Of a stretch of 21,054 nucleotides of DNA, positions 3,850-16,629 are shown in pieces. Numbering within the stretch: position 1 is the first letter of the stretch; every line of letters begins with the position of its first letter. Origin of the DNA: Bacteroidales bacterium (GTDB lineage: Bacteria > Bacteroidota > Bacteroidia > Bacteroidales > Bacteroidaceae); assembly GCA_030531335.1 (NCBI GenBank), contig JAUNNV010000029.1, positions 1-21,054 on the forward strand, given 5' to 3'. Below the pieces are notes generated by a model, which was not told where the DNA came from, did not search any database, and saw only the letters and a program-made list of their open reading frames with translations. The translations under genes and the position numbers were made by a program.

Positions 3850-3855
3850 GACAAA

Positions 3856-3900
3856 TATGATAATTTTGAATTATGAACTTATGATAATTAAGAATTATGA
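3856..3900. repeat. Tandem 21-nt direct repeat (19/21 identical, 24-nt period); each copy contains the palindrome ATAATT-N3-AATTAT
   Basis: 3856-3876 reads tatgataattttgaattatga and 3880-3900 reads tatgataattaagaattatga. The repeat lies in the 96-nt AT-rich spacer between the NfeD-like stop (3946) and the flotillin ATG (3849), ending 6 nt before that start codon. Confidence 0.8.
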
Positions 3901-3945
3901 CTTGCGAAGTTTGATGATCGAATCGAACAATCTTAACTCAAAATA

Positions 3946-4518: not shown

Positions 4519-4549
4519 GTTTTGATGTGTTTTCGTTGTTTTACGTTGG

Positions 4550-4580
4550 CAAATATAGGGACAAATAGATGAATTGCAAA
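4550..4580 (-). promoter_or_regulatory. Candidate Bacteroides-type promoter for the NfeD-like/flotillin pair
   Basis: The minus strand reads TTTG (4580-4577), a 19-nt spacer, then TATATTTG (4557-4550). This matches the Bacteroidetes -33 TTTG / -7 TAnnTTTG consensus. The -7 box ends 31 nt (4519-4549) upstream of the ATG at 4518. Confidence 0.5.
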
Positions 4581-4590
4581 ACAAATCGGC

Positions 4591-4624
4591 AAGAAAAAAC
4601 CCATATCCTCGAGAAGGATATGGG
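4591..4624 (-). terminator. Rho-independent terminator closing the long minus-strand operon
   Basis: The minus-strand RNA reads CCCAUAUCCU-ucucg-AGGAUAUGGG, a perfect 10-bp stem with a 5-nt loop (4600-4624), followed by UUUUUUCUU (4599-4591). It lies 45 nt after the stop of the 4670..7108 gene. No T-tract follows the hairpin in the plus orientation, so it is unidirectional. Confidence 0.85.
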
Positions 4625-4669
4625 CTTGATATTAGAACTTGGGGTGAGGGAGGAAATGACGGATGGGAA

Positions 4670-7108
4670 TCACATTTCGACCAAATGGAAGGAGGTCTGT
4701 CCTATCTGGAAGCTTTCGCCATGCCAGAGTTGATATTCCTTTCCAAGCGCGAGATATTTGCCCCCCTTCAAGGTGATGCCATCTACGGCACAGATACGCA
4801 CTACGCCATGCCTTTCATAAACCTTCACCTGCACGGGAGCCACGTCGCTTTGGAGATCCCAAGTGAGTTGCAAGGCGCAATCGACCGACTTGCCGATGGT
4901 GACAACTGTGTGAGGTGATGAGCGTAGCCATTTGTAGAGTGCGATGTCCATATCCTTGACAGATCCCGACACGTGCAGGAAAAAATGCTTGCCGACCGAC
5001 AAGGGTTGAGTCATGCACACCGCTATGGCCACACCATAGCCGATGAACACGAACAATGTCTTCATTAGTTCCGAAACCGTCTGTAGTTCCGCAACCATTT
5101 CCCAAAACAAAGTGCTCGCCACACCCACGACAGCCAGCATCAGCCACTGTCGCCTTTTGAGCCACAGGCGCGAATGATAGGTGGATACACAAGCGATGAC
5201 AAGTGTAGTCAGCACCCAAGGCAGCAGGTCGAACACAAACGAGCCCTCGTAAAGATTGAGCACGACAAGAGTGGCATTGTTGAAAACGAACACAAAAAAC
5301 ACGAGGACACACGCCACGGATGCCCGGACGAACTGCCCAAACAACCTTATGTGCCAACTATACTTGAACAACGTGAAGATTGACAGGGCAAAGGTAAGGA
5401 CGAAACCGATGATGCAACCAAATGTGGGAAGTGTATATAAACGTGAGGAGATGATGTCCAAATCCTGGGGGGAAAATGGGGATACACCTTGCTCGTGAAA
5501 GCCCAACAAGGAAATCGCGATACCATCGAAGAGGTCGAGAAAGAGTGAGCGAAAATGTGGATCCCACACAACCAACCAACCGATCGACGCCGCAGCGATG
5601 GCTACAAGGATCCAGCGTGTGAAGGGGGATGCGTTTTGAGGGTCGAGCAAGTTGGAACGGTTGTAATAATGCGAGCCATCGGGGCAATGCCTTCCATGTT
5701 CGGGGCAATGTTGTCCGTTTTCATTCCAACACTCCAAATGCATCACATGGCTGCATCTTGCCACGATACGGTCGCCCACGGCAAAGGGAGCCTTACAGTA
5801 ATAACATTCGTCGGGGATGGCGATGGCATTGATGCTCATGCGCCCCCCTGTATAGGTGAGGACATACTTGCGCTGAAAGATGACATAGCGTACAAATGGT
5901 TCCAACAGTTGCAAGGCCACGTAGGCGAGCAACAAGACCAGCAAGGCGATAATGATGCCGCGTGAAGCGATGTGGCCGGGCGATTTGTACCCACCGGTAA
6001 CGATTGGCACGTCAATGCTTCCGCACGCATATTCCTTGGAGCACCGGGCAATCAGGCTGTCGTTCCGGTCGTGGAAACTCAATTCCAGCCTGCGCGAACA
6101 GCCGTAGTAGATTTTCCCATCGGGATTCTCGAGCCGGATGGCGAAATCGGGATAGCCAATGCCGAAGGACGCGAAATTGTGTTTGCGCAACTCGACGGCA
6201 CTCAAACCATCGATGACACCCCCCCCCGATTGCTGGCAGAACACCTGCATCATATCCTTGTCGTCGGTGGAACTGTTTCCAGAGTCGGTCGAGGGAGTAC
6301 ACACGTAGCAAATGGCGGGTGCGGAAAACGAGGTGTCGGCGAGTTGTTGTAGGATTTGAGCCTGCACCCAGTAGTGGTCGGGGTCGAGAGGCGTATTGTC
6401 CGTCTCGTCATACACATGGCTGTCCGACAGTATCGCGATGGTGCGGTATGCAGCCGAGTCGAGAGGTGTTCCGGTGCCTTTGCGCAGTTTGCCGAGCATG
6501 AAGTACAAGGCACGATACACGTAAGGAGGAAGTTTGGTGTCGGACACACGATATTTGGAATTGCCGTTTACGTAATTGTCGATTACGTATGGCGAGACCT
6601 CCATGATAGGCGACAACTCGCCTTCGGAAAGGATGAACGAGATAAACACATTCCCATCGCCATACAGACGTATCAGCGAACGGATGTAGTCGCGTTCCTT
6701 TTCAAGCATGTCGGACGATTGGCACAAATCGACCATCAGCAGCAACTTGAGTCCCAACTTGGCATTTTCGGAAGCCACCACGTTGTTGAAGGAAACGACA
6801 TGTGGATGGGTCGATTCTGACCAAGGCACGAACTGGCGTTTCAGCTCCTTCACTGTCATGTGGATCAAGGAGCTGTCCTCAAGTAGGTATTTGTCCAAAT
6901 CATGGGTAATGTCCAACTCCAAGCTTATCTGTTTCACGTCGGTTGAAACGTTCATCGAGCGTATGGCCAAGGCATGGGTCTCGTGTTCGACCGAAGAAGG
7001 ATTCAACTCCGTGAACCGACTGCACGAGGCAAGTAGCAGAATGTATGGTAGCCAGACAGCAAACTGGCTGAAACGACGGAAACAACAAATTACAGACGGT
7101 TTCATCAT
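4670..7108 (-). CDS. Polytopic lipoprotein with four modules: periplasmic vWA-like domain, TM helix, cytoplasmic RING-H2-type zinc finger, six more TM helices, C-terminal FHA domain. Candidate membrane E3 ligase / signalling subunit.
   Basis: Lipobox LLLASC (Cys29). vWA-like strands are KLLLMVDLCQSSDM (a DxCxS degenerate MIDAS) and RTIAILSDSHVYDE. TM1 spans about aa 384-402. Residues 435-471 follow C-X2-C-X13-C-X-H-X2-H-X2-C-X7-C-X2-H, including CSHVMHLECW. By my hydrophobicity reading there are six further hydrophobic helices (aa ~497-700). The C-terminus VVTIGKSVDCALQLTW...VYERHGVVRICAVDGITLKGGKYLALGKEYQLWHGESFQIGQTSFHL is FHA-like. Confidence 0.7.
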   Translation of the reverse strand: MMKPSVICCFRRFSQFAVWLPYILLLASCSRFTELNPSSVEHETHALAIRSMNVSTDVKQISLELDITHDLDKYLLEDSSLIHMTVKELKRQFVPWSESTHPHVVSFNNVVASENAKLGLKLLLMVDLCQSSDMLEKERDYIRSLIRLYGDGNVFISFILSEGELSPIMEVSPYVIDNYVNGNSKYRVSDTKLPPYVYRALYFMLGKLRKGTGTPLDSAAYRTIAILSDSHVYDETDNTPLDPDHYWVQAQILQQLADTSFSAPAICYVCTPSTDSGNSSTDDKDMMQVFCQQSGGGVIDGLSAVELRKHNFASFGIGYPDFAIRLENPDGKIYYGCSRRLELSFHDRNDSLIARCSKEYACGSIDVPIVTGGYKSPGHIASRGIIIALLVLLLAYVALQLLEPFVRYVIFQRKYVLTYTGGRMSINAIAIPDECYYCKAPFAVGDRIVARCSHVMHLECWNENGQHCPEHGRHCPDGSHYYNRSNLLDPQNASPFTRWILVAIAAASIGWLVVWDPHFRSLFLDLFDGIAISLLGFHEQGVSPFSPQDLDIISSRLYTLPTFGCIIGFVLTFALSIFTLFKYSWHIRLFGQFVRASVACVLVFFVFVFNNATLVVLNLYEGSFVFDLLPWVLTTLVIACVSTYHSRLWLKRRQWLMLAVVGVASTLFWEMVAELQTVSELMKTLFVFIGYGVAIAVCMTQPLSVGKHFFLHVSGSVKDMDIALYKWLRSSPHTVVTIGKSVDCALQLTWDLQSDVAPVQVKVYERHGVVRICAVDGITLKGGKYLALGKEYQLWHGESFQIGQTSFHLVEM
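4673..4912 (-). other. FHA (forkhead-associated, phosphothreonine-binding) domain at the C-terminus of the 812-aa protein
   Basis: The pattern T-I-G-(K/R)-x...D..L...VS..HA-like is degenerate here (TIGKSVDCALQL...APVQVKVYERHGVVRI). It is followed by G(I)TLKGG...L..G..I.IG...F, which is typical of FHA C-terminal strands. Confidence 0.6.
5684..5806 (-). other. RING-H2-like zinc-finger motif within the 812-aa protein (aa 435-475)
   Basis: The segment is CYYCKAPFAVGDRIVARCSHVMHLECWNENGQHCPEHGRHC. Ligand spacing fits the RING-H2 consensus C-X2-C-X(9-39)-C-X(1-3)-H-X(2-3)-H-X2-C-X(4-48)-C-X2-C, with the last ligand His471 (or Cys475). Codons were checked: tgt at 5806-5804 and 5797-5795. Confidence 0.6.
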
Positions 7109-7110
7109 TG

Positions 7111-8076
7111 TCAGATGGTGGGATATTCGTTATCGTTAAATTGTGTCATGGACTTGTACTGCTTCGCCGCTTTCTTGGCGGCCTTCAGAGCGGCATATTT
7201 GCTCTTCATCATTGAAACAAACATCAGGATGATGGCTACGGCAGCCAAACTCATCAAGGAATCCTTCAGATGTTGCATCAGAGGCACATACTTCGCCTGT
7301 TGCACCTTGTCGGATTGCGCCTTTATCTCGGCGAACAACTGGCTGAGGCTGTCCATACGATTCTTTAGCGAAGGCACCAGCAATGCGGCTTGGGTGGCCT
7401 GTTGAAATGTTTGCTGCAATTCGGCAAAGGCGATTTGTTCCTTGGCTTGCAGCTGTTGCAGCAGAGGAGCCGTCTTGGCGGTCAGCGACAGCCTCTGGGA
7501 TTCCGACAGATATTGACTGTACTGATGCCGTTTCGATTCCAGCAGTTTTTCGGCCCGTGTAATGTCCTCCATCGCCTGCAGTCGGGCTTTTTGGGCTGCA
7601 ATCGAGTCCGACACGACTTGGAAGGTCACCTGAAAAGCCGTGAACTTGTCCATCAGAATCTCGTTTTCCACAATGTCTTGTTGTCGTACTTGCGTATAGA
7701 TATTCCATTGTACATTCACATTCTGCAACATCCGATCCAGTCCTTTTAATTCTGTCATCTTGGCCTGCGAAATACTTTTCCCGATATTGAGCAGTGTGGA
7801 TATGTATGCGTCCATCTCGCCCATCGTGGCGTTGGATTGTCCGCTTGGATGCGATGTCGTGGGTAAGTCTGAATAGACATCGAACTTTGTGGGCGTAGCC
7901 CATACAGACATGGTAGCCGATATGGTCACAAGCAGGATGGTGCAGAATGAGTAAACAACTTTTGTCACAATTGATTTCCTGTTATTGGCTTCGCCCATAA
8001 CAGACTGCGTCTCGGCATAACCAAGGTAGGCTTGCCTCTGCTCTTGGCTTGCGCTGTTATTCAAATTCACTGACAT
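7111..8076 (-). CDS. Hypothetical envelope protein: N-terminal TM anchor, Q-rich periplasmic coiled coil, C-terminal TM helix, short basic tail
   Basis: Part of ORF 7111..8232. Start is moved to MSVNLNN (ATG 8076) because 8077-8232 lies inside the upstream gene; M at 7998 is an alternative. TM helices are VVYSFCTILLVTISATMSVWA and LMSLAAVAIILMFVSMM. Coiled-coil heptads include LLQQLQAKEQIAFAELQQTFQQATQAAL. No family was recognised. Confidence 0.6.
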   Translation of the reverse strand: MSVNLNNSASQEQRQAYLGYAETQSVMGEANNRKSIVTKVVYSFCTILLVTISATMSVWATPTKFDVYSDLPTTSHPSGQSNATMGEMDAYISTLLNIGKSISQAKMTELKGLDRMLQNVNVQWNIYTQVRQQDIVENEILMDKFTAFQVTFQVVSDSIAAQKARLQAMEDITRAEKLLESKRHQYSQYLSESQRLSLTAKTAPLLQQLQAKEQIAFAELQQTFQQATQAALLVPSLKNRMDSLSQLFAEIKAQSDKVQQAKYVPLMQHLKDSLMSLAAVAIILMFVSMMKSKYAALKAAKKAAKQYKSMTQFNDNEYPTI

Positions 8077-9277
8077 GTTTGAAGAAATATTTCGCTGCTG
8101 TGTCGAAAATGCCATACGCACGACGCTGTTCTTCGTTGTATATGCCTTTTTCCTCAACACCTTGCTTGGTGACGTTGATGATGTCGCGACCCATAAAGTA
8201 GATATCGCGTCGTTCCAACTCATTTTTCGCAACCAGATTTTGCGCCACCAGTTTGTCTAATTGACGTGCCGCTCGGACAAGTGCTTCGGGCGAAATACCT
8301 GTGCCGTAGAGCACGCTGCCCTCTTCCGTCAGCTCTACCGGGACGGCGCATTTCAGGGATTCAATCGAATCCACGTAGTTGTTGTAACTGTCGCGCACCA
8401 TATTCACATCGGCACATGACGATTTCGTCTCTATCGGTTGGAATTTCGACAACAGAAATTCTTGATGTTGCTTGAACACGCCGACCTCCTCGGCGGATTC
8501 CACCTTGCCTGAAGGACATATCTGATGGAGCTTCCGATACGCTTTCCGGATATCCATCAACTTGGCTTTCATGACAGCCAACGCCTCTTGTTGACCATGG
8601 CAAGGATTGCGGGCCAATGCCACCCGACAAGTAAGGTCAAGATCGTGATCGAATACTATCTCGTATTCCCGTCCTTTCTGAGTGTCTTTCAACACATCCA
8701 CCACCATGATGTTGCGAATGCGCAACGTCACATCGGATGCCTCCGGATTCACCTTGAACCGTTGTGTCAAAATTTTCTGACTTAACTTCGGCAATGTCTG
8801 AGGCGAGTCTGTCGCACTTGTCGGCAGATAGGTAGCAGGACAGGCAATGGTGAGCGAGGCGGAGTTCGGTTCCACCCAGGCATTGATAAGGTGATGGCGG
8901 CGTTTCTTCCGATACGACTTATACACCGATTCTCTTAGGTAATATTTCGAATTAGGCTCTACCAGCACCTTATATTGCAATTTCTCGGCATGAAGCCGAC
9001 GTTTGCCAAGAAACGGATGGGTAAACACATCGTTGTAGGATACGTCCTGACGGAAAGCCATGAAATCGCGATTGCCAGACAACGTGAGAACCAACTCGTC
9101 GGCAGCCTCTTCGAAAGCAAGCGTCAGGTCAAGCTCCAAGCCTTTGTCGTCGAAGGCAATCTGTATTTTCTCCTGATAAGGCGTGTCGGCATCCACACGC
9201 ACGTTTTTGGTCTCTTGAGCCTGTGCCAGGGCAGCACAGCAGGCCATGAAAAGGCAGAAGAATTTAGTCTTGGTCAT
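8057..9277 (-). CDS. Hypothetical secreted/periplasmic protein (406 aa), no recognisable family
   Basis: Signal peptide MTKTKFFCLFMACCAALAQAQE. The ORF is long and well-formed with normal composition. Its start overlaps the E2 stop by 14 nt, and its stop overlaps the next gene's start. Confidence 0.65.
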   Translation of the reverse strand: MTKTKFFCLFMACCAALAQAQETKNVRVDADTPYQEKIQIAFDDKGLELDLTLAFEEAADELVLTLSGNRDFMAFRQDVSYNDVFTHPFLGKRRLHAEKLQYKVLVEPNSKYYLRESVYKSYRKKRRHHLINAWVEPNSASLTIACPATYLPTSATDSPQTLPKLSQKILTQRFKVNPEASDVTLRIRNIMVVDVLKDTQKGREYEIVFDHDLDLTCRVALARNPCHGQQEALAVMKAKLMDIRKAYRKLHQICPSGKVESAEEVGVFKQHQEFLLSKFQPIETKSSCADVNMVRDSYNNYVDSIESLKCAVPVELTEEGSVLYGTGISPEALVRAARQLDKLVAQNLVAKNELERRDIYFMGRDIINVTKQGVEEKGIYNEEQRRAYGIFDTAAKYFFKHVSEFE

Positions 9278-9860
9278 AATATATCCAATTGTTTGGTTCT
9301 CCTTGTGTCCGAACCCAATAGGCTACTTTCAAATCCTCTGGGTAAGGAGGTTCGGGCAGTGCATGGTAGATTTCGTAGCGCAGATACAGTGCGATGCGTT
9401 CCACAGCCCATGCCAAACTGCTGTGTGTGTTGGGCATGTTCACACACACACGTCCTGCCAGGCTACCATGATACCCTATGTTGGGATGCCAAGGCAACGT
9501 GTCGCCCACAAAACGGAAGCAAGGCATAGCATCTACCTGAGGATAACGTTCGGGAAGTTTTATCTCCATCCGAAACTCATGGGCGAAAATAGGACTGCCA
9601 TCCACATTCACCCCACAGATACATTTTATAAAATAGTCTATCGAGTAGGCCGTAGGGATTCCTTCAGGGGTGGCATCGACCACTTGCATGGCGATGTCGT
9701 TGCGTTGTTTCACAAAGGCGGCAAGCTGCTCCCACTCGTAAAACAGTCGGTGTGCGCGTCCTCGAAGAGGCTTGTTCTGAAACCAGCTTGTCCCGGGCGA
9801 AGTCAAGGAAAGGGGTTTACCCTGGGAATGGATCGGGGATGAGGAAAATTGTGTCGCCAT
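9264..9860 (-). CDS. UBC-fold ubiquitin-conjugating (E2)-like enzyme
   Basis: The segment FRMEIKLPERYPQVDAMPCFRFVGDTLPWHPNIGYHGSLAGRVCVNM reproduces the E2 core signature: F.l.i.fp..YP..pP...F.....HPNi....G.iC. HPN is aa 125-127 and the candidate catalytic Cys is Cys139 (tgt at 9446-9444). The ATG at 9860 overlaps the Ubl gene by 44 nt; a TTG at 9806 is an alternative start. Confidence 0.75.
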   Translation of the reverse strand: MATQFSSSPIHSQGKPLSLTSPGTSWFQNKPLRGRAHRLFYEWEQLAAFVKQRNDIAMQVVDATPEGIPTAYSIDYFIKCICGVNVDGSPIFAHEFRMEIKLPERYPQVDAMPCFRFVGDTLPWHPNIGYHGSLAGRVCVNMPNTHSSLAWAVERIALYLRYEIYHALPEPPYPEDLKVAYWVRTQGEPNNWIYYDQD

Positions 9861-10140
9861 TGTTCACATTATAGTCGGCAAGCGTCTGTTCGGTTTTCCC
9901 AATGCGCGGCCGCATCACGCGAATCTCGTGCACGACCTCGTCTTCTTTCCCAAAGAAATAATCGAGGGGTGCTCCTGTGCTGTCGATGGAGGGAAAGTCG
10001 AATATCAGTCGGCCATCTTGTCCGGTTGAATGTTTCAGGTTGTTCATCAATGCGCCCAATGGGAGTTGCGGATTGATGACGCGGAACTTCACCTTTTTGT
10101 CCTTATAGACAATGTTAATGAAAAAATCGTCTTGGTGCAT
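9817..10140 (-). CDS. Ubiquitin-like (beta-grasp) protein whose ORF ends in Gly
   Basis: 107 aa. The strand-strand-helix opening is FINIVYKDKKVKFRVINPQLPLGALMNNLKH. The C-terminal EQTLADYNVNNGDTIFLIPDPFPG parallels ubiquitin's [22 protein letters not shown]. The last codon is ggg (9822-9820), directly followed by a TAA stop (9819-9817). It sits directly upstream of the E2. Confidence 0.65.
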   Translation of the reverse strand: MHQDDFFINIVYKDKKVKFRVINPQLPLGALMNNLKHSTGQDGRLIFDFPSIDSTGAPLDYFFGKEDEVVHEIRVMRPRIGKTEQTLADYNVNNGDTIFLIPDPFPG

Positions 10141-10163
10141 GTTTCGTCAATGATGGTTGATGG

Positions 10164-11927
10164 TTATTTGCTACGCGAATCTAAGTCAATCTTCACTTGG
10201 ATGGGGCAGATGCCCGTAGTACGCACCTCCATGAGCCTTTGTAGGTGATTTTCGATACTGGCAAAATGTTTTCCCAACGCACGTTTCACATACATGTTGT
10301 CGTGGAGCACGATACCTACCACGATGCAATAAGCATGATAGCTACCTCGTGTAAGCACCTGCTTGTGCGTACGTATGGAGGCTATCATTTCCTGCTCTAC
10401 ATTGAACCGTGTGGCCAATTCCTGATAACAAAACAACTTTAGATCTGTTTCGGTGACAAGCCGGTCGTCGGTGGCTATGAAGTAGCGTGTAGCCGTCCTC
10501 ATGGCTTCCTCGGACAACAATTCGTCGTATCCTGGTTGAGGAATCGTCACTTGATGGGATTTGGACTGGTCGAAACCTGGGGGTACCACAAACACGGCAT
10601 CGGAGGTGAGCACACTGTTCACTACAGCTCCGTTAGTGGTCAGATAGCCGACATTGAGTGAAGTGTTTTCTGGGCTTTGTCGAAGGGTGTCGCCCCAACT
10701 ATCCTTCGAGCGTTCGTGAGGAATGCCGGCAAACATCAGATAGACACCCTCGTGCGAGGTTCGCAAATGTGGATGCGTGTGTTGCGACAACTCCTTCAGG
10801 TTGTTGCGCAGGTTGTGCATCACCATGTCGGTATATTCGTTGCCCATGGCCTGAAACGCATAATAGTCGGATGTGTATTTGTCGATGAGGCCCGACAACA
10901 ACCTGTGCAGCCTCCCCTCGTTGAACCTGTCGGCACCTATGCGCCGCACCTGTAGCCGGACATTGCCTAATAGTTGGTCCTCGTCGGGACGTAGCAGATG
11001 AAGAAACTGCCCATTGTTCTTGTCATCGATACGCTGTATAGGCGCATCGGCCGAGAGGGTGGCTGTTTTCACTTCGGCGTTCACTATCAAGGCGATGTTG
11101 ACAAGCAAATCGCTCTCTTTGAAAGAAAAGTTGTCGTCGATGCCGTCGAACTCGAAGGTGAGTTCCATGCGATCAATGGCATCGATATCGTCCATTTCAT
11201 CTACGACATACAGCAATAGGTTTTGTCGGGCATACAAATCCAGGGCGCAGAAGTTGCGATAGGCAGCCATGCCTTGGAACACGTTGCCCGAACGTACGGC
11301 TTGCGACTGATTGTAGAGCAACGTATCAAGCGAGAAACAGTCGGCACACGGCAGATTCGCAAAGTCCCACGGTGCGATGAGGGGTATTTCCCTATCGCTC
11401 ATGCTTACACGCAGGCCATGGAAATCCTGGTTCTTCAAGGCAAACGCAAGGCCTTTTAGGCTTTTCACCTTGTGTGGAAAGAACATATTGACTTGCCATC
11501 TCCTTCCATCCACGCGCCTCAGCCCATCCATCTCCACCTGTATGGCTTTGGTCTTGAGCAAGGGGATGAAGTTGAAGTTGTTGTTGTCGGTTCCTTTTAA
11601 GATGAATCTCATGGACGAATCGACATCCATTTCCGTCACATTGGGCATCAGAGCCAATTGCACGACGGCTGTGGCTGGAATGGCCTTGACTGGTTCGTTC
11701 ACGCAAAGCATGTTCTGGAACTCGTCGAGCAGCTCCGTCCGCAATGCCTCCAACTCGTTGTCCGACTCGTTGAATTGATAGGCCAGTGCCGTAATCAGGA
11801 ACTTGAACAGCGGATCCGAATCCAGTCCCTCAAGACTGTCGCTTCTGTTGTTGCGGTGCCAAATATCCACACATTGGGCCATCAGCTCCTTGGCGCGTTG
11901 TCTTATTTCAAATATGTTCTGTCTCAT
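10164..11927 (-). CDS. tssF: TssF-like (phage gp6-like) baseplate wedge subunit
   Basis: 587 aa, the typical TssF size. The N-terminus IRQRAKELMAQCVDIWHRNN...DSDPLFKFLITALAYQFNESDNELEALRTELLDEFQNML...IPATAVVQL matches the remembered TssF N-terminal layout: a helical segment, the DP(l/h)v..Ll motif, then PAhAv. It is positioned directly after a gp25/TssE gene. Confidence 0.6.
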   Translation of the reverse strand: MRQNIFEIRQRAKELMAQCVDIWHRNNRSDSLEGLDSDPLFKFLITALAYQFNESDNELEALRTELLDEFQNMLCVNEPVKAIPATAVVQLALMPNVTEMDVDSSMRFILKGTDNNNFNFIPLLKTKAIQVEMDGLRRVDGRRWQVNMFFPHKVKSLKGLAFALKNQDFHGLRVSMSDREIPLIAPWDFANLPCADCFSLDTLLYNQSQAVRSGNVFQGMAAYRNFCALDLYARQNLLLYVVDEMDDIDAIDRMELTFEFDGIDDNFSFKESDLLVNIALIVNAEVKTATLSADAPIQRIDDKNNGQFLHLLRPDEDQLLGNVRLQVRRIGADRFNEGRLHRLLSGLIDKYTSDYYAFQAMGNEYTDMVMHNLRNNLKELSQHTHPHLRTSHEGVYLMFAGIPHERSKDSWGDTLRQSPENTSLNVGYLTTNGAVVNSVLTSDAVFVVPPGFDQSKSHQVTIPQPGYDELLSEEAMRTATRYFIATDDRLVTETDLKLFCYQELATRFNVEQEMIASIRTHKQVLTRGSYHAYCIVVGIVLHDNMYVKRALGKHFASIENHLQRLMEVRTTGICPIQVKIDLDSRSK

Positions 11928-11943: not shown

Positions 11944-12387
11944 TTAGTTCCATACGTTTATGATGTTGCTGTACTGAAAAGGCTCGTTTGTATCGCCCAA
12001 CAGGCCGGTTATTTCCACCAATACTTGCCGTTGGTCGCGGCGGTAGTTCATTACTACCTTTGGTGAGAGCAACCGAGGCTCATACACCTCGATGCTATGC
12101 TTCAGGTCGGAGGCGAATGTCTGTAGGTTCTTCGAGGAGCCGGAAACTTTCTTCTTGTATATTGGATTCCGGCTGTCACGAGAATCGAACACCGTCCCCT
12201 CGTTCTCGTCGAAAATCTCAAATCTCAACGTGGAGAACACAAAGCCATAATCCGGATCGATGGGCAAAGAGCCCAACGGTGTGTCCATCAGGAGCTGTAG
12301 CGAATCCCTGACCGATTGCTCCAACCCGTTCGACTGATGGAGGAACCTGCCCGACACTACCTGTAAAGGACTTTGCAAGTATTTCAT
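11944..12387 (-). CDS. tssE: GPW/gp25-family baseplate protein (TssE-like)
   Basis: 147 aa. LEQSVRDSLQLLMDTPLGSLPIDPDYGFVFSTLRFEIFDEN fits the gp25 signature (I..sl..LL.T..Ge....P.yG). Both size and position next to the TssF-like gene are as expected. Confidence 0.75.
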   Translation of the reverse strand: MKYLQSPLQVVSGRFLHQSNGLEQSVRDSLQLLMDTPLGSLPIDPDYGFVFSTLRFEIFDENEGTVFDSRDSRNPIYKKKVSGSSKNLQTFASDLKHSIEVYEPRLLSPKVVMNYRRDQRQVLVEITGLLGDTNEPFQYSNIINVWN

Positions 12388-13589
12388 ATCAATGGTGTGA
12401 AAACATCTTCCGGCTGATGTTCCTCCTTGGCCACGAGACCAGACAGCGCATTGAACAATGCAGGGTAAAGTTCCTGATATAGCCTATCGTGCAATGCTTC
12501 GTACAGCACTTCTTTCAGCTTCGGACGAAGTCGATCGTCCACGTATGCCTGCAGTTTTTCCGTGATTGTCGCGGTCAGTTCAGGCATCACCACGTCGCGA
12601 AGTTCCATGCGGATTTTTTCGTCTATTTGCTGCTTCAATTGTTCAAGAAGTTGTGTGTACAACTCTCTCTTCAGCGCCTCCACATCGATGTGGCGACTTT
12701 CCGTCACCACATCGTCCATGGACAGTAGCAAGGCGTTCATGAATTCTTTGAGCCACGACAGGTAGGCTCGGATATGGTTTGTGTGAGGCACGCGGCGAGG
12801 GTCGGCGGCCAGCTCGCGCGTGGGTTCTTGTCCTGAGCCCTGCCGAAGGACTTGTTGGCCTCCCAATCCCAATCGGATGTGGTAATCCAAGGCTTGATCC
12901 GTTTCGCGCAACAGTCGCACAAGCTCCACTACCGACTCCTTGCCGGTGAGGCTCTGTAGCCGGAAACACAGATGTAACAAGGTGCGTTTGCCGTCACCAT
13001 CCTCCATGTTGCGGTGGGTAGCCAGCTTCGTGAGTAGTTCCACATACATGCTTACGAACTCTCCGAAAGCCTTGTGCGAGGCTGTCGAGATCATGGGAGG
13101 CACATACGAGGCATCCACATTGAGCAGGTCGCCCTCTACGTAAAGCCTCTTCAGCGGCAGTACGTCCAAACTTTCGTCGGCACGTTCCAACTCGTCCAGC
13201 GAATGCAGCGAGAGCTCGTAAACGGGAGCCTTGTAGGGTATGCCATCGCGTTCGAAACAATGTGTTTTCCCATTGGCAGGGCCGACGCACACAAAACATT
13301 CCGGCAACGGTTGCGACACGATGGTCAGCGTGAGGTCGTCATCTACGCTGAGCACGGCCCCCGATGGCAACAATGCCGTAAGCCTCAGATTGTTCATCTC
13401 GAAGGTGTTGCCCACAAAAGCGCCCTCAACGTGTAGTGGGTACATGGGGAGAATGCCCATGCCGACACTCCCTATGGCGGCGCGGAGCAACAGTTGCTGA
13501 CGGTTGTCGAAGTCGTGTTGCTGATGGACGAAGACCCCAGAGGTGAGCTCCATCCCTGGTTGCCAATGTATATTTGCGTTGTAATACAT
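12384..13589 (-). CDS. TssK-like baseplate protein (N-terminal domain) with a divergent helical C-terminus
   Basis: The N-terminus NIHWQPGMELTSGVFVHQQHDFDNRQQLL resembles the TssK opening motif (W.eGm.L.pqHfQq.dry). The C-terminal ~100 aa are repetitive helices (LKRELYTQLLEQLKQQIDEKIRMELRDVVMPELTATITEKLQAYV...). Its stop overlaps the gp25 start in an ATGA junction (12384-12387). Confidence 0.45.
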   Translation of the reverse strand: MYYNANIHWQPGMELTSGVFVHQQHDFDNRQQLLLRAAIGSVGMGILPMYPLHVEGAFVGNTFEMNNLRLTALLPSGAVLSVDDDLTLTIVSQPLPECFVCVGPANGKTHCFERDGIPYKAPVYELSLHSLDELERADESLDVLPLKRLYVEGDLLNVDASYVPPMISTASHKAFGEFVSMYVELLTKLATHRNMEDGDGKRTLLHLCFRLQSLTGKESVVELVRLLRETDQALDYHIRLGLGGQQVLRQGSGQEPTRELAADPRRVPHTNHIRAYLSWLKEFMNALLLSMDDVVTESRHIDVEALKRELYTQLLEQLKQQIDEKIRMELRDVVMPELTATITEKLQAYVDDRLRPKLKEVLYEALHDRLYQELYPALFNALSGLVAKEEHQPEDVFTPLI

Positions 13590-13631: not shown

Positions 13632-14432
13632 TCATTCATAGTCCTTAATTACGATATTGTAGTTCATGATTTTCCCTTCCTCCGACTTGCCCTTGGCTCC
13701 TGCCTCAAACAGGCAGTCGAAAGGAATGAACCGGCTGTGCACAAATGCAAGCATACGTTCCCATCGTTTGGTAAGGTCGGCGTATGCGGTGGCTGTCAGA
13801 CCATCCACACAAATGTCGTAATGCACTTTTTGCATCCAAAAGCGTGTGTTGTCGCATTCGTTGTACGCCGACAAACGCATCCGCACCGGATAACCCGTGA
13901 CAACGCTCAGCAATGATTTTACAAACGACAAGTTGCCACGGAGTTTGGCCACGTATGGCAGCAACACCGCCACCTTGCGCACATACTCGTCCGTTTCCGC
14001 CTCCAAGTCGAACTTGTAGGATGTTTTTAACACGAATTCGAGCTTGCGGGCCAGCAAGTCGGCCACGATGTGTTCCCGCTTCAGCTTCTGCCTGAACATG
14101 AACGAGTCGATGGGTAGGAAAGTTTCTGACAGTGTCCTTATCCGCTCATGCAACTGTTGGGCAAGCTGTTTGAAATCGCCTTTTCGTTTCCTTCCGAAAC
14201 GGTCGGATGCCTTCAGCTCATCCTCCGATCCTAAAAACAAGGGAGGCAGATAGTGTAGGAAGCCGTTGCGCGAAAGCGATACGATTGCTTCCTTCGGATT
14301 GATGGACAACACATCCGGCGCATAGTTCCTGCTGAAGGAACCTTTCTGATAGGCCAGCCACTTGTCTTCCAGCTCTGGATACAAATAGTTGAGCAACAGT
14401 TCCGCACTTATCTCGTGCCTGTCGGTTGTCAT
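13632..14432 (-). CDS. Possible TssG-like baseplate subunit (tentative)
   Basis: 266 aa, in the TssG size range. The C-terminus YDICVDGLTATAYADLTKRWERMLAFVHSRFIPFDCLFEAG resembles the TssG tail pattern (igpL....f..flP.g....l..lv..flP..l). It lies among baseplate genes. Evidence is weak and pattern-level only. Confidence 0.35.
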   Translation of the reverse strand: MTTDRHEISAELLLNYLYPELEDKWLAYQKGSFSRNYAPDVLSINPKEAIVSLSRNGFLHYLPPLFLGSEDELKASDRFGRKRKGDFKQLAQQLHERIRTLSETFLPIDSFMFRQKLKREHIVADLLARKLEFVLKTSYKFDLEAETDEYVRKVAVLLPYVAKLRGNLSFVKSLLSVVTGYPVRMRLSAYNECDNTRFWMQKVHYDICVDGLTATAYADLTKRWERMLAFVHSRFIPFDCLFEAGAKGKSEEGKIMNYNIVIKDYE

Positions 14433-15478
14433 AGTTCCACGTACCTATATCCTGTTGGGGTCTTTATTCTCACAATGTCGTGTGCTGGAATGCCCAACGC
14501 AGCCAATGGCAGCGTGGGGTAGGGGAACGAGGTGTCTATCTCCGCATATTCGTGTTGGCATAGTTTCGCCATCGGTATGGTCGAAAGTCGTGGATGTTGC
14601 TTCACGAAGCCAGCCATTCGGCGTGCCGGCAGCATTGCTTCCGTCTGTTCGCCCGTCTCTCGATTCTCTACATAATCCACAAAGGCATCGTTGAGCACCA
14701 CAGTGCCAATCCGCAGGAGTGATTTCAGCGAGTGTTCCCTGACTACTTCAATAGGCTCCCATTGCTCGTGCAGCACGCAATCGTCATCCCACGCCTCGAA
14801 CACGGCTTTCCGCACACTCAGGTTTTCGCCATCGTAGTAGCACATGTTTCGTTCCACTGGCACGCCTGCAATCACTTTCAATGCTTCGGCTGCTTGCCAG
14901 GCTCCTATCACGCTGGCCGCCACTGATGTGGTAGGGGCATGGCCAGCCGCTTCCATTTGCCGTATCACGCCCGAACAAGGCATCCGTCGGCGCAACTCGT
15001 CCAGTCCTTCCGTCCCGAGGCCACAAGCGTAGCAGTTCACGCCGGGCACAAACACCCGCATCGTCCCCTCCATGCCGATGATGCCACCGTCAATCCATGT
15101 CTTTCCTGCCCTCGTACAGAGGCGCTGGATGCAATAGCGGGTCCACCGGCTATCGACGCATCCCATCACCACGTTCATCTGCCGTATCAATGCCAATCCC
15201 ACATCGTATGCCACATCGCCATGGATGGCCTGCACATCGACGGTGGCGTTGATGCCTCTCAGCGCGTCCTTCACCACATCCACTTTGCGCCGACCCACAT
15301 CGACTGGCCTGAACAGGATGCTTCGTGTGAGGTTGCCCTGTTCCACCACATCGAAATCGACCACCACCAGATGCCCCACTCCAAGCAGTACGAGGTTTTT
15401 GAGCACCTCGTTGCCCAGGGCCCCACATCCCACCACCATGATGCGGGCATCGCGCAGCTTGTCTTCTTCGATGTTCAT
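14429..15478 (-). CDS. ThiF/MoeB/E1-like adenylyltransferase (Ubl-activating enzyme candidate)
   Basis: Start is set at MNIEEDKLRDARIMVVGCGALGNEV (ATG 15478, forming an ATGA overlap with the upstream stop). The Rossmann GxGxxG is at 15413-15430. Other family motifs are VVDFDVVEQGNLTRSILF, GRRKVDVVKDAL, VVMGCVDSRWTRYCIQRLC and GTMRVFVPGVNCYACGL. A crossover-loop Cys lies in RRRMPCSGV. About 130 extra C-terminal residues end in LAALGIPAHDIVRIKTPTGYRYVEL. Confidence 0.8.
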   Translation of the reverse strand: MNIEEDKLRDARIMVVGCGALGNEVLKNLVLLGVGHLVVVDFDVVEQGNLTRSILFRPVDVGRRKVDVVKDALRGINATVDVQAIHGDVAYDVGLALIRQMNVVMGCVDSRWTRYCIQRLCTRAGKTWIDGGIIGMEGTMRVFVPGVNCYACGLGTEGLDELRRRMPCSGVIRQMEAAGHAPTTSVAASVIGAWQAAEALKVIAGVPVERNMCYYDGENLSVRKAVFEAWDDDCVLHEQWEPIEVVREHSLKSLLRIGTVVLNDAFVDYVENRETGEQTEAMLPARRMAGFVKQHPRLSTIPMAKLCQHEYAEIDTSFPYPTLPLAALGIPAHDIVRIKTPTGYRYVEL

Positions 15479-16200
15479 CCGATTGGTAGTTTGTCCTGAA
15501 TGCTGTTGAAGACCTTGTCGAGCTTCATGCTCTGTCCGCCTTTTGTGATGTCCGTTGTGGATGTATCCTTCGCATTGCCGGCCACATGGCGGTTGTAGGC
15601 TTCCTCGATTTCCTTTTTCTTGTCGTTGTAGAGTCGTTCCATCATTTCGGAATACGTGTCGAAAATTTCCTGCAACTTGTCCTTGGCCTCTTTTACCGCC
15701 TCTTCCGAGCTTCCTACAGTGCGACTGGCTACCGCAGACGCAGCCCTCGTCTTTTCTGCCTCGATTTTCGTCTTGCATTCCGAGTAGAGTGCATCGGTGG
15801 CCGTGTCGAGTAAATCCTTGCGTTCCTTATTTACATCGGGCATCGTGAGCAGTAGGTATTTGGCATCGATGCCATTCTCATCGTCTGCCCCAGGAGCAGT
15901 TTCGAGCGTCACCTTGAATTCCGGATGCACTTCCGTGATGCCTTTGTAAATGCAGGAGAAGTACGCCGAATCCTTTGGATATACATTCATCATGTGTTTT
16001 TCGTTCTCATCCTCGTGCACTAAAATGTCGGCCACGTCCTCAATGCGTTTGTCCATGCCACCATACACCATCTCCACTCCCAGCAACGAAGAGGGATCGG
16101 CCTTGACACACACGTTGCAGAACAGGTACGACATGCTTGCCACATGTCCCAGCATCCTGTTCTGTGTTTCTATCAATGCGACTTCTACCGATCGTTTCAT
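15475..16200 (-). CDS. Hypothetical protein with apparent ribosome-recycling-factor (RRF)-like fold
   Basis: 241 aa. Three segments align by eye to E. coli Frr as I remember it:
- [32 protein letters not shown]...[18 protein letters not shown] versus [52 protein letters not shown].
- [38 protein letters not shown] versus [38 protein letters not shown].
- [25 protein letters not shown] versus [25 protein letters not shown].
It also has an insertion and a ~45-aa C-terminal extension. Confidence 0.4.
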   Translation of the reverse strand: [241 protein letters not shown]

Positions 16201-16239: not shown

Positions 16240-16629
16240 CTATTTGCCCTCTGCAAGGCACGCATTGCCGGGGAAGTTCACGGAGATGTTTCCACCCCAG
16301 TTGCACATACATTTGCAGTTGTCGAGCAGTGCAGGCATTTGTTTTACCATTTCTTTTCCTCCAGGCATCCATGGAGCGGCTATCACTGGCATGCAGGGCA
16401 TGGGCGTAAGTGCTCCGAATGCTGCAGCCGTGGCCGCAGCCACCTGAGGATTCGACAAGCTTTGGCACATGCCGAAAGGCATGATGTTCATCATCGGCTT
16501 GTTGTCGCCGATGTTTCCTATGGGTTTCCCCTGTACCTTTGGTCGGGTGGGATCCACCACCATGAAGTTGGAAGGAGCCATCCCGAACGAGCACTGCAGG
16601 ATTGCTCCGGCCGTTACGAATTTTCCCAT
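16240..16629 (-). CDS. DUF4280 (PAAR-like) domain protein, candidate spike-tip protein
   Basis: 129 aa. FVTAGAILQCSFGMAPSNFMVV...VQGKPIGNIGDNKPMMNIMPFGMCQSLSNP...TPMPCMPVIAAPWMPGG...QMPALLDNCKCMCNWGGNISV matches the DUF4280 pattern (A.l.Cs.G..Ps.l.v...g.p.a...D....NI.pFG.C...nP...PC.P....W......g.paL...s.l.C..gG.I). Confidence 0.75.
   Translation of the reverse strand: MGKFVTAGAILQCSFGMAPSNFMVVDPTRPKVQGKPIGNIGDNKPMMNIMPFGMCQSLSNPQVAAATAAAFGALTPMPCMPVIAAPWMPGGKEMVKQMPALLDNCKCMCNWGGNISVNFPGNACLAEGK

Follow-up and report, generated by a model that had tools for sequence, protein, structure and literature searches.

The question raised by this locus is whether a bacterial T6SS gene cluster encodes its own membrane-bound E3 ligase. 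The gene concerned is at 4670..7108 of the window, i.e., of the whole stretch of 21,054 nt of Bacteroidales DNA that was analyzed, and it is on the minus strand, like all features for which coordinates are given below. Its product of 812 aa, RING812, is identical to P0001, a "hypothetical protein" of a Bacteroidales MAG at NCBI. It begins with a lipobox and a periplasmic vWA-fold domain, followed by TM1, a RING-H2 loop, six further TM helices, and an FHA-fold C-terminus. An original prediction had called this protein a candidate transmembrane E3, in which periplasmic ligand sensing and phospho-signaling converge on the ligation of a ubiquitin-like protein (Ubl). Conservation was evaluated with 123 full-length homologs, one representative per 50%-identity cluster.

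The signal peptide (aa 1-29, 7022..7108) ends with the lipobox LLLASC, and its C29 is invariant in alignment A1 and present in 97 of the 123 representatives, the remainder being mostly alignment gaps. A predicted periplasmic beta-sandwich follows (aa ~42-110, 6779..6985; AlphaFold2 strands 45-109, pLDDT 73-88), then the vWA-like alpha/beta domain (aa ~111-320, 6149..6778) and a membrane-proximal beta domain (aa ~321-376, 5981..6148; AlphaFold2 strands 322-363). TM1 (aa 384-402, 5903..5959) has a hydropathy of 2.76 and a positive-inside pattern, with a Lys/Arg-rich cytoplasmic start directly behind it, and is part of a model helix of residues 377-415. The bundle TM2-TM7 (aa 496-703, 5000..5623) was recognized by hydropathy, alternating loop charge, and model helices. 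The seven hydrophobic segments (384-402, 496-514, 563-581, 598-616, 623-641, 655-673, and 681-703) match the AlphaFold2 helices, and thus both approaches concur with the seven TM helices that had been proposed. Because Lys/Arg-rich loops alternate with acidic loops, the N-terminal domain is predicted to be outside and the RING loop and the FHA-fold C-terminus inside, in agreement with the cytoplasmic RING loop of the original prediction.

The RING-H2 finger comprises aa 433-480 (5669..5812), and residues 435-471 read CYYC-x13-CSHVMHLEC-x7-CPEH. C435, C452, H454, H457, C460, and C468 are invariant in all 123 homologs, as is W461, while C438 and C475 are each found in 119 (Asp and Asn, respectively, in the other four). 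The motif itself was thus exactly as had been described, but its last ligand was not, since position 471 is His in only 34 of 123 sequences and Tyr in 77, which makes C475 the more probable eighth zinc ligand. The conserved ligands therefore give the family pattern C-x2-C-x13-C-x-H-x2-H-x2-C-x7-C-x6-C. CPEH is found in all four sequences without C475, and CPEC in a single sequence; in some family members, position 471 serves as an alternative ligand. A regular expression for RING-H2 did not match any of 20,000 shuffled versions of RING812, and 12 of the 49 Cys and His residues of the protein are concentrated in the 46 residues 435-480.

Searches with profiles and models point in the same direction. 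A family HMM of the RING retrieved 31 PDB sequences, about 26 of them RING-finger domains, mostly of RING-H2 E3s, and two membrane E3s, HRD1/synoviolin and gp78/AMFR, were among these (E 0.007-0.6). The isolated loop was modeled with a pLDDT of 87.3, although AlphaFold2 may tend to favor a RING geometry, and the top 14 Foldseek matches of this model were all RING-H2 domains (probability 0.5-0.97), among them RNF13, RMR1, RNF38, RNF12, and Arkadia. The E-values in the PDB and Foldseek searches were marginal (0.007-0.15), and every match of RING812 to a RING family falls short of the curated thresholds. For zf-RING_2 this is true for 15 of 15 family members (RING812: 19.7 bits versus a cut-off of 27.3), so that the Pfam search that had been proposed gave sub-threshold matches. 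Prok-RING_1 matched 12 of 15 members weakly (15.1 bits, threshold 29.1). The equivalents of E2-contacting residues are conserved, namely Y436/Y437, W461, and P469 (104/123). However, the last ligand pair is spaced by x6 instead of x2, and a canonical RING-H2 has a central helix that is longer by three residues, and therefore E2 docking by RING812 may differ. Taken together, sequence and model argue for a well-supported RING-H2 finger on the predicted cytoplasmic face.

The neighboring genes encode the partners that such an E3 would need. The Ubl (9817..10140, 107 aa) ends with DPFPG directly before the stop codon, and this C-terminus is invariant in 10 loci, with a mean column identity of 84%. 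It is far better conserved than its neighbors (70% identity versus 32% for RING812 between the same two loci) and belongs to a family of 639 clusters of about 105 aa without a Pfam family. The UBC-type E2 (9264..9860; UQ_con, E 4.8e-6, 26.7 bits) has an HPN motif and the catalytic Cys139. In the PDB it matches UBE2K and UBE2N best (E about 1e-5), and PWHPNI...AG.VC.N is invariant in eight loci. The E1 (14429..15478) is a ThiF-family adenylating enzyme of 349 aa, counted from an internal Met (PF00899, E 1.4e-51), and best resembles the adenylation domains of UBA7, UBA1, and SAE2 in the PDB (E 4e-26 to 1e-21). None of the three proteins has a hydrophobic segment, and thus they should be cytoplasmic, on the same side as the RING loop. 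A deconjugating peptidase (DUB, JAB/Rpn11) was not recognized in the locus.

Two further proteins are encoded between E2 and RING812. p406 (8057..9277), a conserved member of the block, has a signal-peptide-like hydrophobic stretch at its N-terminus and no family match. p373 (7111..7998, probably 295 aa from M79) is a conserved neighbor with a signal/TM segment, a coiled-coil region, and a C-terminal TM. Its stop codon is 2 nt from the start of RING812, and fusion proteins of both exist (P0021 and P0032); RING812 is translationally coupled to p373. The window and the loci L001, L002, L100, and L101 all have the complete block Ubl-E2-p406-p373-RING. In L102 the part from E2 to RING is visible, because the contig stops inside the E2 gene and the Ubl side is beyond reach; there, two blocks are permuted and E1 immediately follows the RING gene. 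E2 and Ubl were found beside the RING gene in every examined locus with readable neighbors, and E1 as well with one exception; in L100 no E1 gene is present within 10 kb upstream. The shared operon with E1, E2, and Ubl was thus corroborated, all being same-strand neighbors in the window. Because of this operon, together with the real RING-H2 finger and its predicted cytoplasmic location, "candidate transmembrane E3" is a fair label.

The cascade genes are interleaved with genes for a T6SS baseplate. Between Ubl and E1 the window encodes a TssF candidate (10164..11927, 587 aa), TssE, a gp25-like baseplate wedge protein (11944..12387; PF04965, E 3.8e-10; TIGR03357, E 2.6e-7, below cut-off), a weakly supported TssK-like protein (12384..13589; TIGR03353, E 9.2e-4, below cut-off), and the TssG candidate p266 (13632..14432). 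The TssF candidate is proposed from its size and its position next to TssE in conserved synteny, and it had no Pfam, NCBIfam, or PDB sequence match; p266 is proposed from its conserved position between E1 and TssK, and it had no family or PDB match. The synteny of the tssK-like gene is conserved as well. On the other side of E1 follow an RRF-like protein (15475..16200; PF01765, E 4.8e-12), which is kept beside a PAAR-like DUF4280 protein (16240..16629; PF14107, E 1e-30; IglG model, E 7.7e-10), a conserved protein of 597 aa without a family match, which comes after VgrG in related loci (16639..18432), and the C-terminal part of VgrG (19784..21054), the frame of which is open to position 21052, i.e., up to the contig end. 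The latter was identified by a BLAST match to the VgrG of L003 (1176 aa, with Phage_base_V and TIGR01646). L003, a locus with 67-92% identity, also encodes ClpV, TssC (PF17541, E 5e-103), and four Hcp proteins (PF17642). The locus type is thus a Bacteroidota T6SS with ClpV, TssBC, four Hcp, VgrG, a PAAR-like protein, TssK, and TssE. This variant cluster with a RING gene occurs in gut Bacteroidales, and Parabacteroides distasonis An897 and Mediterranea massiliensis Marseille-P2645 are examples of strains with the locus.

In T6SS-iii loci tssN is normally placed between tssG and tssK (PMC10781749), but here no gene occupies this position between the TssG candidate and TssK. TssNQOPR were not detected: the proteins of the cluster gave no Pfam or NCBIfam match, roughly 7-10 kb upstream of ClpV were read in related loci, and the genes downstream of the RING gene differ; such genes could be located elsewhere in these genomes. 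Apart from RING812, the cluster encodes no polytopic membrane protein. This, the lack of a recognizable TssN/O/P/Q/R, and the coupling and fusion to p373 are the reasons why a structural subunit of the membrane complex with an added E3 module is a better reading of RING812 than a sensor.

We therefore favor, with somewhat better than even confidence, the view that RING812 is a polytopic inner-membrane subunit of a variant T6SS-iii and at the same time the RING-type E3 of the Ubl cascade encoded in the locus. RING812, p373, and p406 would stand in for the undetected TssNQOPR, and the lipid-anchored beta-sandwich/vWA region together with p373 and p406 would form the periplasmic part of an envelope-spanning complex. 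E1 would activate the C-terminal Gly of Ubl, and the UBC-type E2 would then be charged with it. The RING-H2 finger, which is about 30 residues or fewer from the membrane between TM1 and TM2, would recruit the charged E2 and promote transfer of Ubl to a target at the interface of membrane and baseplate. Candidate targets are components of the T6SS, cargo proteins, and RING812 itself. The FHA-like domain may provide phosphorylation-independent docking for the baseplate or a substrate, by analogy with SctD/YscD.

Proteobacterial T6SSs are regulated by FHA proteins. RING812 could likewise be a sensor-E3, in which Ubl ligation is gated jointly by a periplasmic ligand that binds to the vWA domain and by an FHA domain that recognizes phosphothreonine, as with Fha1/TagH and PpkA/PppA. 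Both folds that had been predicted are indeed present, and on opposite faces of the membrane. The top Foldseek match of the N-terminal region is the vWA protein ArnB (8s05, E 7.7e-6), and the matches of the FHA region (aa 705-812, 4673..4996) include YscD of the T3SS (4a0e, 4d9v). Their predicted functions, however, were not supported. The FHA domain has other residues at the canonical phosphothreonine-binding positions (G-K740 for GR, A757 for Ser, Q760 for His), the S-x-N loop between beta6 and beta7 is two residues shorter, and the R/S/H triad is missing in 118 of 123 homologs, the remaining five having kept it. The MIDAS is degenerate (D127-L-C-Q-S131 and S228-D-S; family consensus D-x-[TS]-x-[PS]), although about one third of the family has a MIDAS-like start, D-x-[ST]-x-[ST]. 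The absence of a Ser/Thr kinase or phosphatase from the window was confirmed for its larger ORFs, and no kinase, phosphatase, or PP2C family is recorded among the genes of five annotated related contexts either. A sensor-E3 of this kind is thus quite unlikely. Catalytic activity is absent from many treble-clef and RING-like domains, and RING812 might be purely structural, with a zinc-stabilized loop as a docking knob, e.g., for TssK or the baseplate, while E1, E2, and Ubl work without an E3 or with another partner. The non-canonical features of the RING and its sub-threshold Pfam scores would fit, and for the characterized Bil system, which consists of E1, E2, Ubl, and DUB, an E3 component has not been described (PMC10557695). 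We nevertheless regard this explanation as doubtful, since the genes for E2 and, in all loci where it can be read, Ubl belong to the same conserved block as the RING gene, the E2 has the UBC fold with an HPN motif and belongs to the class activated by RING domains, and the E2-contact positions of the RING are conserved.

Several bacterial E1/E2/Ubl operons serve phage defense (PMC10557695), and the E1 matches the PADLOC models for E1-E2 proteins of the Cap2 type (E 1e-17), via the shared adenylation domain. It is nevertheless hardly probable that the Ubl, E1, E2, and RING genes form a Bil- or Bub-like conflict island that happens to lie in or beside the T6SS locus, with RING812 as membrane effector or sensor. 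The cascade genes are interspersed among baseplate genes instead of just adjacent to them, an arrangement that survives the block permutation, PADLOC gave no meaningful match for RING812, Ubl, p266, p406, or p373, and a DUB was not found. In addition, the T6SS locus ends at RING812, behind which the genes vary between genomes, and records of phages and plasmids yielded no copy. Lastly, Ubl might be a secreted product or a secretion tag, which the membrane RING ligates to cargo or spike proteins for loading into the T6SS. It is a free-standing protein of extreme conservation whose C-terminal Gly is ready to be activated, the E3 would be located at the meeting point of cargo, baseplate, and membrane, and a toxin secreted by Bacteroides fragilis is known to be a ubiquitin homolog (PMC5705921). 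However, no effector fusion to Ubl occurs among the 120 best family members, and the chance that this explanation is right seems slim. It is a sub-case of the combined subunit and E3 that we favor, differing in the target alone.

This favored interpretation suggests that a bacterial injection machine has its own ubiquitin-style tagging system. We found no published description of the RING812 system, but Burroughs, Iyer and Aravind (2011) may already mention the family.

The locus can be compared with several known systems. Eukaryotic transmembrane RING-H2 E3s (HRD1/synoviolin, gp78/AMFR, and the PA-TM-RING proteins RNF13 and RMR1), which are among the best sequence and structure matches of the loop, likewise combine a cytoplasmic C3H2C3 finger with a lumenal or extracytoplasmic domain, and their partner E2s have the UBC fold. 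In contrast, RING812 is bacterial and encoded in a T6SS locus, carries additional vWA-like and FHA-like domains, has its RING in the internal TM1-TM2 loop instead of at the C-terminus, and deviates by the C-x6-C pair, the short central helix, and the unmet Pfam thresholds. The FHA-RING ligases RNF8 and CHFR as well as Fha1 bind phosphothreonine, whereas RING812 lacks the residues involved. A closer parallel is SctD/YscD, an inner-membrane protein of the T3SS with an FHA-fold cytoplasmic domain, which has been reported not to bind phosphopeptides. ArnA, the partner of archaeal ArnB, is a zinc-ribbon and FHA protein, and thus the same three kinds of modules (vWA, zinc, and FHA) co-occur. However, ArnA and ArnB are separate, soluble, kinase-regulated regulators of the archaellum, while RING812 is one membrane protein with no kinase encoded nearby.

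BilABCD, Bub, and CBASS Cap2 are bacterial systems that likewise couple an E1-type adenylation enzyme with an E2 and with a Ubl that has a C-terminal Gly, but these are stand-alone islands with a DUB and without a RING E3, in contrast to the RING812 locus with its RING, no DUB, and a T6SS, and the PADLOC defense models have only the E1 fold in common with it. A full set of E1, UBC-type E2, small RING, and Ubl is known from prokaryotic operons such as the Caldiarchaeum subterraneum cascade (PMC5654768). The locus differs from these by the lack of a recognized JAB/Rpn11 peptidase, the placement of the RING in an 812-aa polytopic protein, and the interleaving with baseplate genes. With respect to the secretion machinery, the T6SS-iii membrane complex TssNQOPR (Bongiovanni et al., 2024, PMC10781749) comprises the vWA-domain lipoprotein TssR, the multi-TM protein TssN of the inner membrane, the cytoplasmic domain of which docks TssK, and the periplasmic proteins TssQ, TssO, and TssP with a single TM each. 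The RING gene also adjoins T6SS-iii baseplate genes, and RING812, p373, and p406 supply equivalent kinds of parts. In contrast to TssNQOPR, none of these parts matched a T6SS membrane-complex family in sequence searches, and RING812 unites TssR-like and TssN-like features in one protein, in which the cytoplasmic RING and FHA modules replace the beta-grasp domain; the beta-grasp protein here is a free, conjugatable Ubl that is encoded together with its E1 and E2.

The gene at 4670-7108 on the minus strand encodes a protein of 812 aa, RING812, identical in sequence to a Bacteroidales MAG protein that NCBI lists as 'hypothetical protein'. Scans of RING812 against Pfam, NCBIfam and PADLOC yielded sub-threshold RING matches only; families of vWA, FHA or T6SS membrane-complex proteins were not matched, and tblastn searches of plasmid and phage collections retrieved no match. 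A word-indexed search found only 15 homologues with identities of 30-67%; the wider family was seen by an exhaustive profile search. At E<=1e-3 this search retrieved 433 representatives of 50%-identity clusters, of which 207 remained at E<=1e-30. The family members are mostly 780-830 aa long, and the conservation counts given here refer to 123 aligned full-length representatives of such clusters. A hydropathy scan predicted seven TM segments (384-402, 496-514, 563-581, 598-616, 623-641, 655-673, and 681-703). The loops 403-495, 582-597, and 642-654 are rich in Lys and Arg, the loops 515-562, 617-622, and 674-680 are acidic or uncharged, and the N-terminus contains the lipobox LLLASC. Because of this charge alternation and the lipobox, the first 380 residues are predicted to be outside, and the RING loop and the C-terminal domain inside. 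All evidence presented is computational; the structural claims about RING812 rest on AlphaFold2 models, and the full-length model has a mean pLDDT of 76.8.

Residues 435-471 read CYYC-x13-CSHVMHLEC-x7-CPEH, exactly as stated in the original prediction, which had proposed RING812 as a transmembrane E3. The RING-H2 pattern did not occur in any of 20,000 shuffles of the protein, and 12 of its 49 Cys and His residues are clustered inside 46 residues. The spacing was tested against that of RING-H2 fingers (C3H2C3; Pfam zf-RING_2, PF13639), i.e., C-x2-C-x(9-39)-C-x(1-3)-H-x(2-3)-H-x2-C-x(4-48)-C-x2-C. Ligands 1-7 fit this spacing and are kept in 119-123 of the 123 representatives. C435, C452, H454, H457, C460, W461, and C468 are found in all 123 without any alternative, and C438 in 119, with Asp in the remaining four (P0104, P0115, P0121, and P0131). 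H471, the x2 partner of ligand 7, had been regarded as the last ligand, but this position is His in only 34 of the 123 representatives and Tyr in 77, whereas C475, which follows ligand 7 with a spacing of x6, is present in 119. C475 is therefore more probable than H471 as the eighth ligand, and the consensus of the family is C-x2-C-x13-C-x-H-x2-H-x2-C-x7-C-x6-C. All four sequences without C475 have an Asn instead and carry CPEH (P0092, P0095, P0100, and P0102), and one sequence reads CPEC. These natural ligand swaps (C438D and C475N) could help to assign the eighth ligand.

RING812 does not reach the gathering thresholds of zf-RING_2 (19.7 versus 27.3 bits) or Prok-RING_1 (PF14446; 15.1 versus 29.1 bits). 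Sub-threshold zf-RING_2 matches were found in all of the first 15 homologues (best E 8.3e-4), and weak Prok-RING_1 matches in 12 of these 15 members (best E 4.4e-4). A family HMM of the RING loop retrieved 31 PDB sequences with marginal E-values of 0.007-0.6; about 26 of them are RING-finger domains, most of these from RING-H2 E3 ligases, and the retrieved sequences include RNF126, HRD1/synoviolin, ZNRF1, RNF24, gp78/AMFR, ZNRF3, and Arkadia. In the alignment to the PDB matches, the central RING helix of RING812 is three residues shorter than that of canonical RING-H2 fingers. Residues 408-494 were also modelled alone (AlphaFold2, pLDDT 87.3), and the 14 best Foldseek PDB matches to this model are all RING-H2 E3 domains, i.e., those of RNF13, RMR1, RNF38, RNF12, and Arkadia/RNF165, with target-normalised TM scores of about 0.45-0.58 for the top targets. 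Putative hydrophobic E2-contact positions are kept, namely Y436 after ligand 1 (95/123), an aromatic or aliphatic residue at 437, the invariant W461 of the helix, and P469 after ligand 7 (104/123). Each of the RING matches is marginal, and they are persuasive only because they are mutually consistent and the ligands are conserved. The available evidence thus agrees with a genuine RING finger: its ligands are conserved, the predicted model resembles RING (cross-brace) domains and not a simple zinc ribbon, and the predicted location is not periplasmic.

The two other domains were recognized by their predicted folds. The N-terminal region matches ArnB (Foldseek, E 7.7e-6) and has the alpha/beta fold of vWA domains in the model. 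The MIDAS motif (DxSxS...T...D) is not intact, the corresponding residues being D127-L-C-Q-S131 and S228-D229-S230, and the commonest pattern at the MIDAS positions across the family is D-x-T-x-P. The C-terminus is modelled as an FHA (PF00498) beta-sandwich, and Pfam FHA matches were obtained for 8 of the 15 homologues. The fold call of the original prediction therefore stands, but the phospho-signalling attached to it is not supported. In comparison to the phosphopeptide-binding FHA domain of DgcB, GR is changed to G-K740, the Ser and the His of SxxH are replaced by A757 and Q760, and two residues are missing from the S-T-N (beta6-beta7) loop. The R/S/H triad is complete in only 5 of the 123 representatives.

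All genes from 7111 to 21054 are on the minus strand, like that of RING812. The neighbouring gene, p373 (7111..7998), has its stop codon 2 nt from the start of RING812 and encodes a coiled-coil protein that has a signal/TM segment and, at the C-terminus, a further TM. It is preceded by p406 (8057..9277), with a signal-peptide-like N-terminal stretch, and by the genes for a UBC-type E2 (9264-9860), a Ubl of 107 aa (9817-10140), a 587-aa protein (10164..11927), TssE/gp25 (11944..12387), TssK (12384..13589, a weak match), the 266-aa protein p266 (13632..14432), and a ThiF-family E1 (14429-15478). Further upstream are the genes for an RRF-like protein (15475-16200) with a significant ribosome-recycling-factor match (PF01765), a DUF4280 PAAR-like protein (16240..16629), a 597-aa protein with coiled-coil and repetitive segments and no family match (16639-18432), a BNR-repeat (sialidase-like) protein of 432 aa with a signal-peptide-like N-terminus (18470-19768), and the C-terminal part of VgrG (19784-21054, the '371-aa ORF'), the frame of which is open to the contig end. 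The 587-aa and 266-aa proteins are TssF and TssG candidates by position only, and no more is claimed because PDB sequence searches with both gave nothing useful. The window thus ends within vgrG, and the genes for ClpV, TssBC, and Hcp that are present in related loci would be off-contig.

Those loci contain ClpV, TssB, TssC (Bacteroidota-type PF17541, E 5e-103), four Hcp (PF17642), and a VgrG of 1176 aa upstream. The RING812 gene is thus inside a T6SS-iii locus, beside TssK and baseplate genes, and in L003 this locus also contains the PF17541 TssC and the PF17642 Hcp. A classification as an extracellular contractile injection system was considered and rejected, because ClpV, TssBC, and TssK argue for a T6SS. 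The 597-aa gene is always located between the VgrG and the PAAR-like gene, and with its product as a marker the cluster was found in 17 GTDB species representatives, among which the gene order is conserved. The carriers include Bacteroides, Parabacteroides distasonis An897, Alistipes, Millionella, Mediterranea, and Caecibacteroides. A TssB search added 211 loci from JGI metagenomes, in which ClpV is the first cluster gene or is preceded by extra VgrG/597-aa/RRF modules; a conserved membrane-complex block upstream of ClpV was not found in them.

The window shares the block Ubl-E2-p406-p373-RING with four related loci (L001, L002, L100, and L101); no E1 was found within 10 kb upstream in L100. 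In a Porphyromonadaceae MAG (L102), the contig of which ends inside E2, E2-p406-p373-RING can be read. The operon halves are swapped in this locus (1-10500), giving the order E2-p406-p373-RING-E1-p266-TssK-TssE-568 aa with E1 directly after the RING gene, and therefore the modules stay together despite rearrangement. Two representatives (P0021 and P0032) are p373-RING fusions, single proteins of about 1,075-1,100 aa, in which the lipobox region would be an extra TM helix, and this would be topologically consistent. Downstream of the RING gene, each of the compared loci has different genes. In the window, these are genes for a flotillin-like SPFH and an NfeD-like membrane protein (2482-4584, minus strand), directly downstream of the RING gene. 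They were rejected as members of the system, since their presence beside the cluster is not conserved in other genomes, and they look like an unrelated operon. A 782-aa ORF with a weak helix-hairpin-helix (HHH_3) match (34-2382, plus strand) is on the opposite strand and outside of the cluster.

Several upstream genes vary between the loci. In contrast to the window, vgrG and the 597-aa gene are direct neighbours in L003, L004, and further loci, and the intervening BNR-repeat gene may be a lineage-specific insertion or encode a cargo protein. The RRF-like gene is conserved beside the DUF4280 PAAR-like gene (window, L006, L008, L012, and others); in many loci it is on the opposite strand, next to a gene of about 450 aa. 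It is found again upstream of ClpV, in the additional VgrG/597-aa/RRF modules of L020 and L022, and in L001 a PEGA-domain protein occupies its position. For the RRF-like protein, roles as adaptor, immunity protein, or effector are conceivable.

A full cascade is encoded in this one operon, i.e., the adenylation domain of an E1, a UBC E2 with HPN and Cys, and a Ubl with a C-terminal Gly, and it looks eukaryote-like. The E1 comprises 349 aa from an internal Met (position 15478). Its best matches are to active adenylation domains, those of UBA7, UBA1, and SAE2 (E 4e-26 to 1e-21), with MoeB and ThiF ranking lower. A longer E1 of 449 aa (14429-15778, minus strand) was discarded as an artefact of ORF calling; it overlaps the RRF-like gene by about 300 nt, and the homologues start at the internal Met. 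In the E2, PWHPNI...AG.VC.N is invariant in eight loci, and the best PDB matches are UBE2K and UBE2N (E about 1e-5). The Ubl belongs to a family of 639 clusters with about 105 aa, which has no Pfam family and no annotation, and its C-terminus DPFPG-stop is invariant in ten loci, with a mean column identity of 84% in the Ubl alignment. Its conservation greatly exceeds that of all other genes of the locus, with about 70-92% identity where the neighbours have 30-50%; for example, the identities between the window and L001 are 70% for the Ubl and 32% for RING812. A profile search of the PDB gave only weak matches to ubiquitin variants, and we infer the Ubl fold from weak Pfam hints, the C-terminal Gly, and the context. 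No hydrophobic segment is present in E1, E2, or Ubl, which places all three on the cytoplasmic side together with the RING loop. Family scans recognized no deconjugating or processing peptidase (JAB or papain-like DUB) in any cluster ORF; the Ubl already ends in Gly, and therefore no processing is needed.

One tentative explanation, which we put forward as possible and not as established, is that gut and rumen Bacteroidales harbour a widespread T6SS lineage in which TssNQOPR is replaced by p406, p373, and RING812 with its transmembrane RING-H2 E3 core, and in which assembly, baseplate docking, recycling, or cargo loading depends on covalent Ubl attachment by the in-locus E1, E2, and E3. E1 would activate the C-terminal Gly of the Ubl, which would then be passed to Cys139 of E2. 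The RING-H2 finger, within about 30 residues of the inner leaflet, would recruit E2~Ubl and promote the transfer of the Ubl to a lysine of a target at the membrane/baseplate interface. The FHA-like domain without a phosphothreonine pocket might be a constitutive docking surface, comparable to the FHA-like domain of the T3SS protein SctD/YscD. The ligation could serve assembly, docking, recycling by ClpV, or cargo loading. Within this explanation the Ubl might itself be a secretion tag or a secreted product, a sub-case that seems very unlikely.

Other readings give the RING finger or the whole cascade a different role. The loop could be a purely structural RING-like knob and the conjugation independent of an E3, in agreement with the spacing of the last ligand pair, which is non-canonical, with the shorter central helix, and with scores below threshold; in view of the conserved block that holds the RING gene and E2, the HPN motif of this UBC-fold E2, and the kept E2-contact positions this appears rather unlikely. 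The original prediction had seen RING812 as a sensor, with ligand binding by the vWA domain and phospho-gating by the FHA domain. Both folds are indeed predicted, but the lost phosphothreonine-binding residues, the degenerate MIDAS, and the lack of kinases argue against this, so that it is decidedly improbable. As had been noted before, there is no Ser/Thr kinase or phosphatase among the window ORFs, and a PpkA-type kinase and a PppA-type phosphatase are absent from the window and from five annotated related contexts. That the conjugation genes are a defence island merely located within a T6SS locus is barely plausible, because they are interleaved with baseplate genes and this arrangement is preserved through the block permutation.

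RING E3s that work with an E1, an E2, and a ubiquitin-like modifier are regarded as a hallmark of eukaryotes and archaea, and bacterial examples are rare and uncharacterised. The RING812 family unites RING and vWA, RING and FHA, and RING and a membrane anchor in one protein, and eukaryotes have these pairings separately, in Ssl1/p44 (vWA), RNF8/CHFR (FHA), and HRD1/RNF13 (membrane anchor). The domains are each of a known kind, and it is the combined architecture and the T6SS setting that appear new. The cascade combines a UBA1-like E1, a UBC E2 with HPN, a RING-H2 finger, and a Ubl with a conservation reminiscent of ubiquitin. It is present in full in cultivable gut Bacteroidales such as Parabacteroides distasonis An897, Mediterranea massiliensis, Bacteroides mediterraneensis, and Millionella massiliensis, and therefore the function of a bacterial RING E3 is directly testable by genetics. 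In one paper (PMC10557695), bacterial RING E3s are called 'rare examples', citing Burroughs et al., 2011. Full-text searches found no paper that ties a T6SS to its own E1, E2, Ubl, and RING genes; an earlier computational mention of the family is possible (Burroughs et al., 2011). Descriptions of gut Bacteroidales T6SS from 2016 to 2025 cover only GA1-3, in which ubiquitin, ThiF, or FHA genes are not mentioned, and the founding paper on Bacteroidales T6SS architectures is silent on ubiquitin, ThiF, FHA, and DUF4280 genes. The cluster points to an undescribed architecture beyond GA1-3, with an envelope-spanning part that is not TssNQOPR, and covalent protein tagging may take part in it. If true, it would be the first secretion machine with a built-in ubiquitin-type conjugation, and RING812 would be the first polytopic RING E3 from bacteria with a demonstrated function alongside a cognate bacterial E1, E2, and Ubl.

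The membrane complex of the T6SS-iii has been described for B. fragilis and consists of TssNQOPR (PMC10781749). TssN, with five TM helices, binds TssK through a cytoplasmic beta-grasp domain, and its gene is located between tssK and tssG; TssR is a vWA-domain lipoprotein, and TssQ, TssO, and TssP are periplasmic proteins with a single TM (PMC10781749). No Pfam or NCBIfam T6SS membrane-complex family, and thus no homology to TssN, O, P, Q, or R, was detected for RING812, p373, p406, or p266, even at E<=1, and no other cluster ORF matched such a family. This absence of TssNQOPR holds within the loci read, with roughly 7-10 kb upstream of ClpV in related loci. The junction of p266 and TssK, i.e., the tssN position of B. 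fragilis, is empty, and RING812 is the sole polytopic membrane protein of the cluster. Based on position, topology, and analogy, and not on homology, p406, p373, and RING812 may form the envelope-spanning module of this T6SS variant. RING812 has the lipobox and the vWA domain in common with TssR, and the TM bundle and cytoplasmic domains in common with TssN, while p373 and p406 would be further periplasmic parts beside it. It might be speculated that a Ubl ligated onto the membrane complex would recreate post-translationally the beta-grasp docking hub that is fused to TssN in B. fragilis.
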